Source: an uncultured candidate division Zixibacteria bacterium (GTDB lineage: Bacteria > Zixibacteria > MSB-5A5 > UBA10806). Taken from it: 64,000 nt of DNA. The stretch is from positions 1,408,001 to 1,472,000 of the forward strand of contig CAWDFP010000006.1 in NCBI GenBank assembly GCA_963801605.1, in the 5' to 3' direction. The translations under genes were made by a program, and so were the position numbers. Below, piece after piece: positions 16,487-50,128 of the stretch (positions are counted from its first letter, which is position 1; each line of letters starts with the position of its first letter). The notes below the pieces were generated by a model. It did not search any database, was not told where the DNA came from, and saw nothing but the letters and a program-made list of their open reading frames with translations.

Positions 16487-16568
16487 GCGGAAGTGGCGGA
16501 ACTGGCAGACGCGCCATCTTGAGGGGGTGGTGCCGAAAGGCGTGAGGGTTCAAGTCCCTCCTTCCGCA
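16487..16568 (+). tRNA. tRNA-Leu (anticodon GAG), CCA not encoded
   Basis: GCGGAAG/CTTCCGC acceptor stem, CCATC-TTGAGGG-GGTGG anticodon arm, long variable arm, GGTTCAAGTCC T-loop. Confidence 0.96.
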
Positions 16569-16580
16569 GATAAAGATATA

Positions 16581-16609
16581 TCCCGCAAGTCGTTGTAAGA
16601 CTTGCGGGA
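16581..16609 (+). terminator. Hairpin downstream of tRNA-Leu
   Basis: TCCCGCAAGTC-GTTGTAA-GACTTGCGGGA followed by T-rich sequence. Confidence 0.55.
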
Positions 16610-16741
16610 ATCTTATTTTCTGGGAGCACTTACAGTGTTTTTCTCAGATTTTAAGTCAGTATATCTACCAATAACTTACAACGAATTTATAGGCATATAT
16701 GTAACAGTCACAAAATAAGAATGTCCATAGACGGGTAAAAA

Positions 16742-16931
16742 AGACGGATAGAAGCCGTCTCAGGCTGTTAACAATTAGTCATTTCGAGAATTGTTGCTTG
16801 CAAGAGTATATTTCCCTATTGATTAAAGTGTAGGGGCGTATTGCAATACGCCCCTACAATAAAATAATTAAATTTCGAATGGGATAAATCTATGACTTTG
16901 TAAACAATCTCAGACGGATAGAAGCCGTCTC
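16742..16931. repeat. 20-bp direct repeat AGACGGATAGAAGCCGTCTC (16742-16761, 16912-16931)
   Basis: Identical copies; each is itself a small inverted repeat. Confidence 0.85.
16829..16858. repeat. Perfect 30-bp palindrome, GTAG-type REP-like
   Basis: TGTAGGGGCGTATTG|CAATACGCCCCTACA. Confidence 0.85.
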
Positions 16932-16979
16932 TTTTTCGGGTGGAGCAACGCATATGCCAATTGGTATCCCATTGAGATT

Positions 16980-17441
16980 CTAGTAGGGGAGAAGATTGAT
17001 TTTTTCGCGGTTCACATCGGGGGCATGGTAAGCGTAAATGAGCGTTGACTGAATATCGGAATGCCCCATCCACGCTTGGATATCTCGAATCGGCACTCCC
17101 GATGCAAGGGTATACGTTCCAAACGTACGACGCAAGTCGTTCAGTTTGTCTAATTGCCCAAGTTTTTGTAATTATCTCTGGTAAGCTAATGACAATTCCT
17201 GTGGCCTGTGGTACTTAATGGTTACCCCTTCTTTTTTGCTTCTGGGAAGTGCCCATGAATCCTTGAGCACATTGGTTTGCTTGAGAATTTTAGCCAGCTG
17301 ATGACTCAGGGGGATCGTACGTGGCCGCTTACCTTTGGAAGTATAGCTGCGATCGGACCGTATTTTTATTTCCATCTTCTTGAAATCGATGTCCGACATT
17401 TTTAATTCAACCATTTCAGATCTTCGCAAACTAGAATATAC
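16980..17441 (-). pseudogene. Tyrosine recombinase/integrase C-terminal relic
   Basis: One frame: YSSLRRSE...TSKGK...in-frame TAA (17172-17174)...NDLRRTFG...WMGHSDIQSTLIYA; N-terminal half missing. Confidence 0.85.
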
Positions 17442-17828: not shown

Positions 17829-18044
17829 CCAGAATCAAGGTAAATGGTCGAGTTGGCGGTTCGAGTTTGATGTCTATTGCTGCCATATTATTTGTACTAA
17901 GGCAATTCATTTTCAACTTGACGAATTAGGCTTTTTTTTGCTAATCTTGGCATTCGTAATACCCGCTTGCCCCGCTGTTATAATGGTAGGGGTGTCGCGG
18001 CGGCCAGAACATTAACGCCTAGACGGTTGTGGAGGCACAATCGA

Positions 18045-18716
18045 ATGTCGAAAATCAGAGTACTGCTGATCGAAGATAACCGCCTTCTACGAGAAGGCAT
18101 AGAAGCCATGCTCAACGAGCAGGAGGATATCAGGGCACTTTCGGCCGCCGGGAATGGTGATGCCTTTGAAAAAGCGGAGAAGCTCAATCCACATGTCGTC
18201 CTCCTGGATCTTGGTCTCAGGAGCCAAAACAGCCTAAAGGTGGTAGGACACATCAGGAAGAAGTTTCCCGGGACAGAGGTGGTCGTGATGGATCTTATTC
18301 CCGTGCATGCCGAGGTCATTGAATTCGTGAAAGCCGGTGTTTCGGGCTTCATTCTCAAAGACGCCACTCTCGATGATTTTCTGCATACCATCAGGTCAGT
18401 TGCGAAAGGGAAAAAAGTTCTTCCGCCACCATTAACCGATTCGCTCTTTTCCCATATTGTCGAGCACGCTGTCCAGGCGGGTAAAGTAGACGAACTAATC
18501 GAGTCGGTTAAGTTGACTAAAAGGGAACAGGATGTAATAGATCTGATAGCCCTTGGCCGAAGCAATAAGGCAATCGCCTCGGAACTTAATATCGCTATCC
18601 ATACAGTCAAAAGCCATGTGCATAATATTCTCGAAAAGCTGGCCCTGCATACGCGTCTTGAATTGGCCAGTTTCGCTCATACCAAAAACACAAATATCGA
18701 TAACTCTGAACGGTAA
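18045..18716 (+). CDS. NarL/LuxR-family response regulator (paralogue 1)
   Basis: REC (IEDN, LLDLGL, GFILKD) + LuxR HTH (LTKRE..SNKAIA..TVKSHVHNILEKL); GGAGG RBS. Confidence 0.93.
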   Translation: MSKIRVLLIEDNRLLREGIEAMLNEQEDIRALSAAGNGDAFEKAEKLNPHVVLLDLGLRSQNSLKVVGHIRKKFPGTEVVVMDLIPVHAEVIEFVKAGVSGFILKDATLDDFLHTIRSVAKGKKVLPPPLTDSLFSHIVEHAVQAGKVDELIESVKLTKREQDVIDLIALGRSNKAIASELNIAIHTVKSHVHNILEKLALHTRLELASFAHTKNTNIDNSER

Positions 18717-18751: not shown

Positions 18752-18806
18752 TAGACCCTTTTTCAATCCTTAGAGCGATTGACCCAATTTTAAATCTTTA
18801 TATAAT
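18752..18806 (+). promoter_or_regulatory. Island promoter motif copy 1
   Basis: TAGACCCTTTTTCAATCCTTAGAGCGATTG running into TTGACC-N16-TATAAT. Confidence 0.8.
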
Positions 18807-19075: not shown

Positions 19076-19516
19076 TTATCTGGAGGAACTCGATAATTCT
19101 AAGGCGGAGCAAAAACAAATTGTAATTGATTCAAAAAATATAAGTAAGGAATATTGGGGTACCTTGTAGAGTATTTCAAAATTCAATTGCCATTTATCAT
19201 GATGCAATTTGGCATAATTTATTAATGGTTCATAGAGAAATAAAATAAGGACATTGTTCGAATCTACATAACCGGGATCAAGGAGCGGTAGGGCGTTCTC
19301 TGGAAACCCATGAGGGGTCTTTAGAGAAATAATATTCCCTGGAATGAGGGGAAATTTCCAGGGAAAAGATCCCCCGAGAAGCTGATAAGGCTTCCGGGGG
19401 AGTAAATAAGACTCAGGAATAAATCAAGATCGGGAAATTATAAATGCTCCCACAGCCAAGTTGTATTCGTCCGAACGCCCGTACGTATGCCTAACAATTA
19501 ATAGATAGGATTTTCC

Positions 19517-20056
19517 ATGACCTATGAAACGATAGGGAAAAATGAACTCCAAGACGAGGCCCTATTAAATCTGGATGCTATCTGGCAAACAGCTCTATGG
19601 TTCGCCAATAGCGACCACGAAGCTGAAGACCTGGTTATGAATACCTACGTGAAAGCCTCTACGTTTTGGGTTGATACTATTTCCAAAGACGGCTGTAAGG
19701 CCCAATTGTTCAAGGTTTTGATGAAGTTGCTCTTTGGAAAAACCCGGCTGAATTTCCGCGCACATTCATCCGTCAGTTTCGAAAATATGCATGATTCAAT
19801 ACCACCAGATAAAGTTTCAGAATTCGAGACAATTCCCAGGGACGTGATAATTGGGGCCATCAAGGGGCTTCCGGTAGAAATTCGCCTGGTTATGGTATTA
19901 TCGATTTTTGAAAAGTTCTCATATCAAAAGATCGCCGAAATATTAGGCGTTCATAAGAAGGCTGTAAGACTAAATATATATCAAGGATATATGCTTCTTC
20001 GACGAGATATCATCGATTCTTTTGCTGCGGGGAATAATAAAATGGCAGTTGGATGA
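19517..20056 (+). CDS. Divergent ECF sigma-70-like protein (copy 1)
   Basis: sigma2-like EAEDLV..TYVKA; sigma4-like AIKGLP..IR.V..L...EKFSYQKIAEILG. Confidence 0.8.
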   Translation: MTYETIGKNELQDEALLNLDAIWQTALWFANSDHEAEDLVMNTYVKASTFWVDTISKDGCKAQLFKVLMKLLFGKTRLNFRAHSSVSFENMHDSIPPDKVSEFETIPRDVIIGAIKGLPVEIRLVMVLSIFEKFSYQKIAEILGVHKKAVRLNIYQGYMLLRRDIIDSFAAGNNKMAVG

Positions 20057-20089: not shown

Positions 20090-20471
20090 GTGACGAAATA
20101 CGTGGAACTCGATAGACTTAGACCTAACAGTTGGTTTCTTAATAGGAAAAAGGTTGAAATTGTCCGCCAAATTTGGCGCGAAGGGAAGCAGCATCATCTC
20201 CATTGCTATACTTGTAACCACCATCGATAACGAACTAAGTTTGCTTGATGGCCATTGCCGGGCTTTTGTAGCCTGGGAAAATGGAGCTTTAGAAATTCAG
20301 GCGAATATTGTATCACTCGACCAGGTCAGCGGCCCCACGGAATTATATATTATCTTTCATCATCAAGCGCCCAGCGTCGGTATTCGAAATGTTCATGATC
20401 TAGGCAAAAGAATATATGATTTGTCTGATACAACCGACCCTGACATCGCGATTGCAATTACAGACGTATAA
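20090..20471 (+). CDS. ParB/sulfiredoxin-fold small protein (copy 1), +1 frameshift near 20200
   Basis: GTG 20090 MTKYVELDRLRPNSWFL joins ...LLDGHCRAFVAWENG; colinear with intact copy at 49230. Confidence 0.75.
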
Positions 20472-20601: not shown

Positions 20602-20877
20602 TTAATAGCGGGAACCGCGGTCGCGGTTGTCTGTGCGTGGACGAGCCTCGCTGACAGTTATCGAACGACCATCGAGATCCTTGCCATTAAGATTGAGAAT
20701 GGCTGCGTCGGCTTCAGTTTTATTCGGCATTTCAATAAAGCCGAACCCCTTTGACTCGCCGCTCATCTTGTCTTTGATAATGTTGGCGGTCGAAACCTGG
20801 CCATGGCTTTCAAACGCCTGTCGAAGGCTGTCAACTTGTGTCTGGTGTGATAGATTTCCGATGAATATATTCATCAT
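20602..20877 (-). CDS. RRM-domain RNA-binding protein
   Basis: RNP2 IFIGNL, RNP1 KGFGFIEM, C-terminal V.EARPR. Confidence 0.95.
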   Translation of the reverse strand: MMNIFIGNLSHQTQVDSLRQAFESHGQVSTANIIKDKMSGESKGFGFIEMPNKTEADAAILNLNGKDLDGRSITVSEARPRTDNRDRGSRY

Positions 20878-47985: not shown

Positions 47986-48663
47986 TTTTCGATTAAATCT
48001 TATAGCGATTTACTTATAATATTTTAATATACGAGCTATTTCCGAAAGGAGTTAATTATTTCGGTTGATTATAGGCATTATCAAGTATTTATAGAATATA
48101 GGGCACTAAAAGCAGCCCAATAGAGCATTCCATATTAAATAATTCCAATCTTGAAAAGGCAAATGTACTTAGGCTAATTCGAATAGTGGAGCGAAGCACA
48201 TATTTAGCCTATTATCATCAAGATTCCATATTAGGGCCGCTGCCTAAGCCCATAAATAATTATAATTTATCGTTAAGATTCAATTTAGTATCCCATCCCC
48301 GCCCCCAGATTATCCCAATCCCTCTTGACAACCACAAGATAATCAACAACATAGCAATCATGATGAAAATGTTTGTTCTGCGCCATAGTGCGAAGTTTGG
48401 TATACTCATTATCTACGGCCTTAATCCCCGTTGACCATTACGCCTTATTCCTCATATTTAGCGCAAGTCAATGATGCGATACCAAAATAAATTAAATTAA
48501 TCGTTTGATTTGAAAATGTATGACAGCAAAAAATGAAAACCTTAAATTTGATTGTAACTATTACACCTAGTGTTTATTTCAGAATTAATAAAATCACTAG
48601 CATTTTTTAATTATTAAAAACCAGATTTTACAAATGATTTCAAATATTAAAACGGGAGTTGCC

Positions 48664-49197
48664 ATGACCAAACAAACAGAATCCAGCTTCAAAGAGAAAG
48701 CCCTGCCGCATTTGGACGCAATGTGGAATACGGCCCTGTGGTTTGCGGAAAATGATATCGGCGCCGAAAGTCTGGTCGAGGATGCCTATCTCGAGGCATA
48801 TCGGAAATGGGACGATTCGGTTACCGTAGCGGGTGCAAAAACCTGGATGTTTAAATTTCTGGTGAGACTGGTACTCGAACGAAGCAGAATGATTTCGAGA
48901 AAATCGTTTCCACAAAATCTTGATAATGTTTTAATGTCCCTTTTGCCCGACGAGACACTTCAAATTAACAATATTCCTAAAGAAGTCATCGCCGATGCCA
49001 TTAAAAATCTGCCAGTGGCGATCCGCCTGATGATGGTACTCTCGATTTTCGAAAAATTTACTTACAGCCAAATTTCCGAAAGCACCGGGATTCAGAAAGA
49101 CATCGTCAGCGCCAAAATTTATCAGGGTTACACCCTTATTCGTAAAACAATTTTTAATTATTGCACTGCTCAACATGCCGGACTGCAAACCTGTTAA
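48664..49197 (+). CDS. Divergent ECF sigma-70-like protein (copy 2)
   Basis: ALPHLDAM..TAL, AESLVEDAYLEA, AIKNLP..IRL..VL...EKFTY. Confidence 0.8.
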   Translation: MTKQTESSFKEKALPHLDAMWNTALWFAENDIGAESLVEDAYLEAYRKWDDSVTVAGAKTWMFKFLVRLVLERSRMISRKSFPQNLDNVLMSLLPDETLQINNIPKEVIADAIKNLPVAIRLMMVLSIFEKFTYSQISESTGIQKDIVSAKIYQGYTLIRKTIFNYCTAQHAGLQTC

Positions 49198-49229
49198 AAA
49201 TAAATAATAGGTCTGATGGGGGGGAGAAA

Positions 49230-49637
49230 ATGACACAATACATTGAACTCGAAAGGCTTCGACCAAACAACTGGTTCCTTGATAGAACGAAACTCAACCG
49301 CATTAGGGATGCTTGGAGTCAGGGAAACCAACGCCTGTTACCGGCTGTCCTGGTAACTATCATAGATGGCGAATATAGCCTCATAGATGGGCATTGCCGC
49401 GCATTTGTAGCCTTTGAAAACGGTTCTTGGGGGATTTTGGCCGAGATAGCCGAGGCCGATCAGGTAACCCATAATATTAATCTGCTTACAATTTTCCATC
49501 GCCAGGGGCCATTCATAGGTGTGAAATGCATTCAGGATCTCGGCAAAAGGATAATTGATTCCATAAGTGTCGAGAAGCCAACTCCAAAAATTCAGGATCG
49601 CTTGAAGCAACTCGCGTTGGTTGCTGTTAATTTATAA
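49230..49637 (+). CDS. ParB/sulfiredoxin-fold small protein (copy 2)
   Basis: LRPN, PAVLV, LIDGHCRAFVA. Confidence 0.75.
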   Translation: MTQYIELERLRPNNWFLDRTKLNRIRDAWSQGNQRLLPAVLVTIIDGEYSLIDGHCRAFVAFENGSWGILAEIAEADQVTHNINLLTIFHRQGPFIGVKCIQDLGKRIIDSISVEKPTPKIQDRLKQLALVAVNL

Positions 49638-49732
49638 AATTATAATAATCGTATGAATTTATATTAGAATATTTTGCTTGAAATTTATTAAATTCCATGA
49701 TAAGGTCTTCTCGAATGCTTCAAGGAGGAGGT

Positions 49733-50128
49733 ATGAATTCAATTTTGGTGGTGGAAGACGAAGCCAATCTTCGTGATCTATATGTTGATGAACTAAAAGA
49801 TGCTGGATACCATGTAAGGTCAACTGCATCCGGCAAGGAGGCCCTCGACTGGGTTAAGAGAGAACGCCCTCAATTAGTCGTTCTGGATATTATGTTGCCG
49901 GATATTAATGGCTTACGGGTCCTGGAAGAAGTTAAGGCTTACGATAAATCAATTCCAGTGCTGCTGAACTCCGCCTATAGCGTTTACAAATCCGATTTTT
50001 CGAGCTGGATGGCTGATGATTACGTCGTAAAATCATCCGATACCAGCGAGCTTATTGATAAAGTCAGATTTCTAGCGAAAGGCAAAAATCCCGATTACGT
50101 TAAATCTTGTCTCAAATCAAATTATTAA
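49733..50128 (+). CDS. Single-domain response regulator
   Basis: VVEDE, LDIMLPDING, SAY, YVVKS. Confidence 0.9.
   Translation: MNSILVVEDEANLRDLYVDELKDAGYHVRSTASGKEALDWVKRERPQLVVLDIMLPDINGLRVLEEVKAYDKSIPVLLNSAYSVYKSDFSSWMADDYVVKSSDTSELIDKVRFLAKGKNPDYVKSCLKSNY

Follow-up and report, generated by a model that had tools for sequence, protein, structure and literature searches.

Does a gene that resembles an ECF sigma factor and is followed by a stand-alone ParB/sulfiredoxin (Srx)-fold gene encode a working sigma factor with an unusual regulator, or a sigma-derived protein that does something else? The question is raised by a stretch of Zixibacteria DNA of 64,000 nt (the window), in which a first-pass annotation had noticed such a gene pair twice, in the same order and with a spacing of about 33 nt. 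We call the sigma-like protein a pseudo-sigma, for the reasons given below, and the ParB/Srx-fold protein its partner.

The two-gene unit and its surroundings

The coordinates of both copies were confirmed (Table 1), the spacer being 33 nt in copy 1 and 32 nt, with a G-rich ribosome-binding site, in copy 2; spacers of 21-33 nt with ribosome-binding sites were found in all seven pairs measured. The two sigma-like proteins of the window have 73 identical residues (42.7% identity) and share the segments TALWFA, VLSIFEKF and IYQGY, and the two partners share RLRPN.WFL, DGHCRAFVA and DLGKRI, as the annotation had quoted. The genome of the window (G000) has no further partner copy. The remark that no anti-sigma gene is adjacent also holds, no zf-HC2-type gene being found next to either copy. 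The partner gene of copy 1 is 382 nt long, with one extra base that splits its frame. This may be an assembly error, since indels are frequent in the G000 assembly: of 119 genes orthologous to G002 ORFs, 26 (about one in five) carry a frameshift, so that any frameshift or pseudogene seen in this genome should be confirmed by reads. G001 also has a frameshift in its copy-1 partner, at a different place, while the copy-1 partner of the close relative L010 is intact. A further SigH-like ECF of G000 (contig C7, L072:1767-2343) is split in two overlapping ORFs, probably by an assembly indel.

Table 1. Features of the window (positions without prefix) and related loci elsewhere
Feature	Position	Strand	Remarks
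Pseudo-sigma, copy 2	48664..49197	+	177 aa; sigma2+sigma4 fold; SigH/SigR-type ECF-derived; promoter-reading residues lost
Partner, copy 2	49230..49637	+	135 aa; single-domain ParB/Srx-fold protein, DGHCR clade
Pseudo-sigma, copy 1	19517..20056	+	179 aa
Partner, copy 1	20090..20471	+	ParB/Srx-fold; GTG start; +1 frameshift near 20197-20204
Single-domain receiver protein	49697..50128	+	directly downstream of copy 2; same position in G001
Conserved non-coding element, 33 nt	48403..48435	+	upstream of copy 2; 30/33 identical in G001
NarL/LuxR-type response regulator	17967..18716	+	upstream of copy 1; homologue precedes degenerate sigma in G001, G002, G021
Sigma70-like promoter match TTGACC-N17-TATAAT	18779..18806	+	after response regulator; equivalent in G001, G002
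Three tandem hairpins	19295..19402	+	upstream of copy 1; in L009 with compensatory changes
Hairpin counterparts outside window	L009:3-114; L123:3851-3890; L015:1490-1529		
Degenerate sigmas without ParB/Srx partner	L015:1691-2206; L123:4072-4587; L075:1486-1986; L076:1468-2034; L084:756-1349		
RsrA-like anti-sigma	G000 C6:1270014-1270295		
trxA promoter motif loci	L147:255-590 and L150-L173		

The neighbours of the two copies differ. G001 holds both copies in the same contexts as the window, copy 2 being flanked by an FG-GAP-type gene and the single-domain receiver, and copy 1 following the NarL-type regulator. The copy-1 region of the window lies behind an integrase fragment that follows a tRNA-Leu (16487-17429); it includes NarL-type regulators at 17967, 25004 and 25860, a glycosyltransferase and an RRM protein gene (20602-20877), and is partly syntenic in G002. 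The tandem hairpins upstream of copy 1 have purine-rich loops (z -4.4 and -5.0) and show two-sided changes in 4 of 10 consensus pairs across 8 units; a single hairpin of this kind precedes the degenerate sigma of G001 and G002. They gave no credible Rfam match and could be a leader RNA or an operator. Together with the sigma70-like promoter match, the conserved hairpins suggest that the copy-1 locus is expressed. The conserved element upstream of copy 2 is a probable promoter or operator; the promoter/terminator scan around this copy stayed at chance level. A defence or phage origin was also considered and is unsupported: PADLOC returned no matches for five proteins, and viral contigs gave two weak partial matches to the partner and none to the sigma-like protein.

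Descent of the sigma-like protein and its DNA-contact residues

The sigma-like protein has full-length NCBIfam ECF matches, all below the curated cut-offs, and the best solved relative of the family profile is M. tuberculosis SigH (E 1.6e-18). The ESM Atlas returned generic ECF clusters, together with an unnamed/ParB_N cluster. The phylum search retrieved a canonical ECF that is followed, in the loci inspected, by a zinc-finger-type anti-sigma gene and preceded by GGGAAC-N17-TGTT in 23 of 24 loci. In the tree, the 12 sampled pseudo-sigmas and five degenerate relatives that have no partner (from G001, G002, G019, G021 and G022) form one group (100/99), which joins the phylum-wide canonical ECF (97/95) and has far longer branches than it; it should be noted that the tool warns of some long branches meeting. 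The SigH-like paralogue of G000 itself was dropped as a candidate ancestor, the pseudo-sigmas being closer to the phylum-wide ECF. Judged from profile and tree, the pseudo-sigma descends from a SigH/SigR-type ECF. The ancestral autoregulatory GGAAC/GTT promoter is absent from all ten upstream regions examined at pseudo-sigma loci. Three of the partnerless degenerate sigmas follow the same NarL-type regulator as copy 1, so that this linkage predates the partner; G001 carries two degenerate sigmas in tandem.

An intact circuit of the SigH/RsrA type is present in G000, where a canonical SigH-like ECF is followed by a zf-HC2 (RsrA-like) protein. Upstream of trxA, the motif GGAAC-N16-18-YGTT is present in 21 of 24 genomes of the order, compared to 3.9% of random windows, which indicates a thiol-stress regulon of the SigR/SigH type (the ECF12 group; PMC7826278) in Zixibacteria. 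The motif is not enriched in the genome as a whole, the 50 strict matches being close to the base-composition expectation by a rough estimate; thus, it is the conservation at trxA alone that counts. The motif was also seen in G000 before a peroxiredoxin-like and an Mrp-like gene. In L164 and L165 (G022 and G019, which carry a distinct degenerate sigma type), trxA is preceded by GGAAAC and not by GGAAC. The ancestor's own anti-sigma, of 265 aa, has no full-length match in G000.

Using SigH numbering for DNA-contact positions, we counted residues in 17 pseudo-sigmas and 25 canonical relatives. The residues of the -10 pocket and of promoter melting, F72, N77, W81, I85 and N88, are invariant in the canonical relatives and occur in 0, 3, 4, 3 and 0 of the pseudo-sigmas, respectively; the -35 recognition residues S182 and R186, and also R183, occur in none of them. 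Alanine at F72, N77, W81, I85, N88, S182 or R186 impairs transcription by SigH (PMC6411747). The replacements at these positions vary among the 17 proteins. For example, the -35 helix has S, R, C or A at position 149, A, L, N, F or Q at 150, and K, N, Y, A or Q at 151, and its net positive charge is +2.8 compared to +5.0 in the canonical relatives. A recognition helix that is freely variable within the family makes it less likely that a new DNA specificity has become fixed. These counts speak for one option raised in the first-pass annotation, a sigma-derived non-canonical regulator, as the best-fitting one, and make the other, a working ECF with the partner in the anti-sigma place, unlikely, because the residues that read the -10 and -35 elements are gone family-wide. 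The protein is best read as a pseudo-sigma and not as a sigma, and probably has no transcription activity.

What remains is mostly the frame of the protein. There are 22 positions kept, mostly of the hydrophobic frame, and ten positions switched to a new fixed residue, R26W and R156Y being fixed in 17/17 each; position 156 is R, R, R, S and F in the five partnerless relatives, so that only the partner-linked clade has R156Y. In the DAEDLxQE motif, AE is present in 17/17, the first D in 8/17, D36 in 2/17, E40 in 1/17 and Q39 in none, and region 2.2 is still acidic (net -3.8 vs -3.4). The hydrophobic frame of sigma4 (A112, I113, L116, P117, R121, L126, F132 and Y134) is kept in 15-17 of 17. Open frames of 177-191 aa were found in 16 of the 17 aligned pseudo-sigmas, in addition to one truncated record, with 34-73% identity to the query. 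In the AlphaFold model (pLDDT 81.8), both the sigma2 and the sigma4 domain are present and form a closed bundle that matches anti-sigma-bound SigW/RpoE (Z 15.2, rmsd 3.2-3.5, 144 aligned residues) and PhyR (Z 11.2, rmsd 2.9, 120 aligned). The sigma2-sigma4 linker is unrelated to that of SigH and about 15 residues shorter. Positions of anti-sigma contact were provisionally mapped onto the pseudo-sigmas through RpoE numbering. Among the published class I contact positions, A13 (16/17), D18, E35 and S127 (17/17 each) are kept, whereas E10, Q39 and F128 are lost or switched (0/17 each), and the equivalent of RpoE R178 is Tyr in all 17. In ECF12, an Arg at this position pairs with an Asp of the anti-sigma (contact list in Table 2 of PMC7406223).

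The partner family and its linkage to the pseudo-sigma

The partner is a single domain of 135 aa with no HTH, and both its model (pLDDT 88.3) and the fold searches bear out the ParB/Srx fold that had been proposed from the sequence. The top Foldseek matches are sulfiredoxin (E 5.6e-05) and Atu1540; by VIA-align, the model matches Atu1540 (Z 10.5, rmsd 4.2, 106 aligned), Arabidopsis sulfiredoxin (Z 9.7, rmsd 3.3, 85 aligned) and SerK (Z 8.9, rmsd 3.1, 99 aligned). Sequence searches gave no Pfam or NCBIfam match above cut-off, weak contact with ParB_N for 3 of 33 homologues, and nothing under E 0.4 in the PDB search with the partner profile.

Across the 33 close homologues, the partner itself included, D53, G54, H55 and R57 are invariant (the GxxR phosphate motif, Box II), and all 21 sequences examined for it have DGHCR. 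The Cys that had been pointed out in this motif is indeed present, but it does not occupy the catalytic position of sulfiredoxin. The sulfiredoxin signature is F(S/G)GCHR, with the catalytic Cys99 and the phosphate-binding His100 (PMC4619093, PMC9925728); the partner has His at the place of Cys99 and Cys at the place of His100, and its identification as a sulfiredoxin was rejected on this ground. The wider family, an unnamed DGH[T/S/A/C]R family, has 326 representatives at E 0.001. At the place of the motif Cys, 150 of these have Thr in 82, Ser in 26, His in 10, Cys in 4 and Ala in 4 cases (20 have no motif match and 4 show other variants). Given Thr or Ser in 108 of the 150, the Cys may be a small-residue substitution. 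Conversely, the DGHCR clade (26 rows, SH-aLRT 93) gained the motif Cys and lost a C-terminal W-x-x-x-C helix on the same branch, this helix being present in 0/26 rows of the clade vs 34/37 non-Cys rows, so that the alignment is compatible with a functional cysteine that could have been relocated. One unrelated row, P0035, has both the motif Cys and W-x-x-x-C.

In a scan of 52 proteins of the wider family, many stood alone and some carried a fused GNAT, NUDIX, nitroreductase or methyltransferase domain, and no constant neighbours of the wider family or of the partner's sister clade were found in the 27 loci inspected. In three related loci (L023:4366-5304, L051:5478-6329 and L057:4055-4969), sister-clade genes precede a PLP-dependent cysteine-synthase-like gene, a weak lead toward SerK-like serine kinase activity. 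Nucleotide specificity in the ParB/Srx fold is unpredictable from sequence or AlphaFold3 (PMC12704722); ATP as the nucleotide of the partner is a guess by analogy to Srx, which has no HTH, and to SerK.

Linkage to the pseudo-sigma is a property of one clade. Among 63 loci fetched from the partner alignment, a sigma-like gene lies directly upstream in all nine DGHCR loci, whereas the 54 other loci have no ECF-like match within the fetched DNA, at least 700 nt of upstream sequence being available for 42 of them. Some of the nine are the same G001 loci fetched more than once; counted once each, there are seven distinct pairs outside the window (two in G001, and L009-L012 and L025). These seven share one ancestor, and thus represent a single evolutionary event and not a statistical sample. 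The partner profile matched 2 of 285 genomes of the phylum, both of one genus, and the pair and the partner are absent from the third genome of this genus (96% complete); a search of this kind can miss remote homologues, and it omitted the distant family member L053, a Zixiibacteriota record.

The dN/dS ratios (Nei-Gojobori) are 0.20-0.51 for the pseudo-sigma (21 unsaturated of 28 pairs; 0.25 at dS 0.38 for the closest pair) and 0.07-0.21 for the partner (13 of 28 pairs), values that are rough, with dS mostly >1 and about 12 codons of one partner out of frame. Synonymous sites are saturated between copy 1 and copy 2. By these ratios, which lie below 1, both genes are under purifying selection, and the pair is conserved in other genomes. 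The distances of pseudo-sigmas and partners are congruent (Mantel rho 0.74, 59/5040 permutations). It should be noted that neither the linkage nor the congruence needs an interaction, because co-inheritance alone yields both.

Possible roles of the unit and comparison with known systems

A sigma shape that was selected after its DNA contacts were lost must act through a protein surface. We tentatively favour, ahead of the alternatives, the reading that the pseudo-sigma is a stand-alone PhyR-like decoy for the RsrA-like anti-sigma, modulated by its partner. PhyR binds an anti-sigma and thereby releases the sigma that it holds (PMC4598750, PMC8999054). By analogy, a pseudo-sigma that does not read promoters would bind the RsrA-like anti-sigma, titration of the latter would release the cell's intact SigH-like factor, and the co-encoded partner would be a probable nucleotide- or thiol-dependent modulator of the decoy. 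This reading is favoured by the match of the closed model to anti-sigma-bound SigW/RpoE and to PhyR, by the contact positions kept, and by the existence of a target, i.e., the SigH-like/RsrA-like pair of G000 with its conserved trxA promoter. Closed conformations occur in real sigmas too, however, and the contact positions kept double as fold or core-binding positions; the loss of E10, Q39, F128 and the R178-equivalent Arg weakens the case further. Since the ancestor's anti-sigma is unmatched in G000, the decoy would have to cross-bind the anti-sigma of a paralogue, and orthogonality is the rule among anti-sigmas (PMC7406223). As a ligand, core RNA polymerase is just as plausible, because region 2.2 stays acidic with AE in 17/17. 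A decoy that works with the partner is also at odds with the partnerless degenerate relatives in G002, G019, G021 and G022 and with the frameshifted copy-1 partners of G000 and G001, although that of L010 is intact. Taken separately, anti-sigma binding by the pseudo-sigma falls somewhat short of an even chance, and a physical or enzymatic link between pseudo-sigma and partner comes close to one. The decoy reading has a bolder form, which we hold to be unlikely: a second, independently evolved sigma-mimic switch, in which the pseudo-sigma would titrate an RsrA-type redox anti-sigma and the ParB/Srx protein with its relocated cysteine would gate the decoy by nucleotide or thiol state. If so, the thioredoxin regulon would gain a non-oxidative input.

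Next in rank, and also unlikely, is a complex of pseudo-sigma and partner that has taken on a new function apart from the SigH circuit, in which the sigma fold would serve as a scaffold or phosphotransfer substrate. The fixation of R156Y in the partner-linked clade only, the exchange of the C-terminal helix for the motif Cys and the uniformly short spacers all suit such a complex; yet these are single events on one branch, and the differing neighbours of the two copies point to no target or pathway. Behind it we place three readings of about equal and rather low probability. The pseudo-sigma might occupy core RNA polymerase without reading promoters and thereby damp other sigmas, with the partner setting its availability. 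The contact of sigma2 with the beta-prime coiled coil is electrostatic and that of sigma4 with the flap tip is hydrophobic (PMC6411747), and both the negative charge around AE in region 2.2 and the hydrophobic frame of sigma4 have been kept; on the other hand, D36, Q39 and E40 are nearly or entirely gone, and so is the original form of the linker, which SigH needs for its activity (PMC6411747).

An active but highly divergent ECF of new promoter specificity, with the ParB/Srx protein as its anti-sigma or activator, would agree with the ECF-like fold of both domains and with the Lys or Arg at the N88 position in 13 of the 17 pseudo-sigmas, Arg being found there in some real ECFs (PMC6411747). 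Divergent ECFs were moreover filtered out in the ECF reclassification and so escaped it (PMC7826278). Against this stand the DNA-contact positions, none of which is conserved in a new state, the reduced charge of the -35 helix and the upstream regions of the two copies, in which no common promoter motif was seen. The remaining reading is that the two are unrelated passengers of one stress operon, a slowly eroding sigma remnant and a small, mobile enzyme whose gene came to lie after it. The sister clade without constant neighbours, the absence of the pair from the third genome of the genus, the frameshifts in two copy-1 partners and a dN/dS about twice as high for the sigma as for the partner would all be expected from it. 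It does not sit well with the open frames kept by the pseudo-sigmas and their newly fixed Trp and Tyr, nor with a pair that was duplicated and kept as a unit until synonymous sites between the copies were saturated.

The literature searched, which was thin on subscription papers, yielded no description of the pair or of a stand-alone SigH-derived mimic, and "ParB" is absent from the main text and one supplementary file of the ECF reclassification (PMC7826278). Proteins of this kind are either labelled ECF sigmas in annotations or dropped from ECF surveys. The reach of the case is one genus of uncultured bacteria, with a mechanism that we infer. Through the clade-specific pairing, a ParB/Srx family that is widespread and has no name becomes testable for the first time.

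PhyR is the standard example of a mimic that arose from a sigma factor. The same conversion appears here to have started from a SigH/SigR-type ECF, and intermediates survive in neighbouring genomes, so that one can trace stepwise how DNA contacts were lost and new residues became fixed. The likeness to known systems is partial in each case. As in SigR/SigH-RsrA/RshA (ECF12), the closest solved sequence is SigH, and zf-HC2 anti-sigmas and a GGAAC/GTT promoter are present in the canonical relatives; unlike SigR/SigH, the pseudo-sigma has no promoter-reading residues, adjacent anti-sigma or autoregulatory promoter. The partner resembles sulfiredoxin in being a single ParB/Srx domain with no HTH and with a Cys within the GxxR motif, and differs from it in the order of His and Cys in DGHCR. 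Judged by their defining residues, the two proteins are neither an ECF12 sigma nor a sulfiredoxin. The partner also has the fold and the GxxR phosphate motif of Atu1540, SerK/SbnI and the ParB CTPases but, unlike these, consists of 135 aa with no HTH or dimerisation domain and has no parA neighbour. In ECF43 (EcfP-like) factors, Ser/Thr replaces the DAED glutamate and a Ser/Thr kinase is adjacent (PMC8999054). The pseudo-sigma is similar in its partly eroded DAED and in a possible phosphotransfer protein adjoining it; it differs in the lost DNA-contact residues, in E35 kept in 17/17 and in having no kinase among the adjacent ORFs, and EcfP-like phosphorylation was rejected on the last two points. 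The bundle of PhyR, which likewise consists of ECF-derived sigma2 and sigma4 and does not act as a sigma (PMC4598750, PMC8999054), comes closest: here, too, a predicted sigma fold has no promoter-reading residues, and response-regulator genes adjoin both copies. In contrast to PhyR, the pseudo-sigma stands alone at 177-191 aa with no fused receiver, the receivers being separate neighbouring genes; it derives from a SigH/SigR-type ECF with a zinc-binding anti-sigma and not from EcfG; and it is co-encoded with a ParB/Srx-fold protein. By analogy, the unit most likely works like PhyR, yet it is no PhyR.
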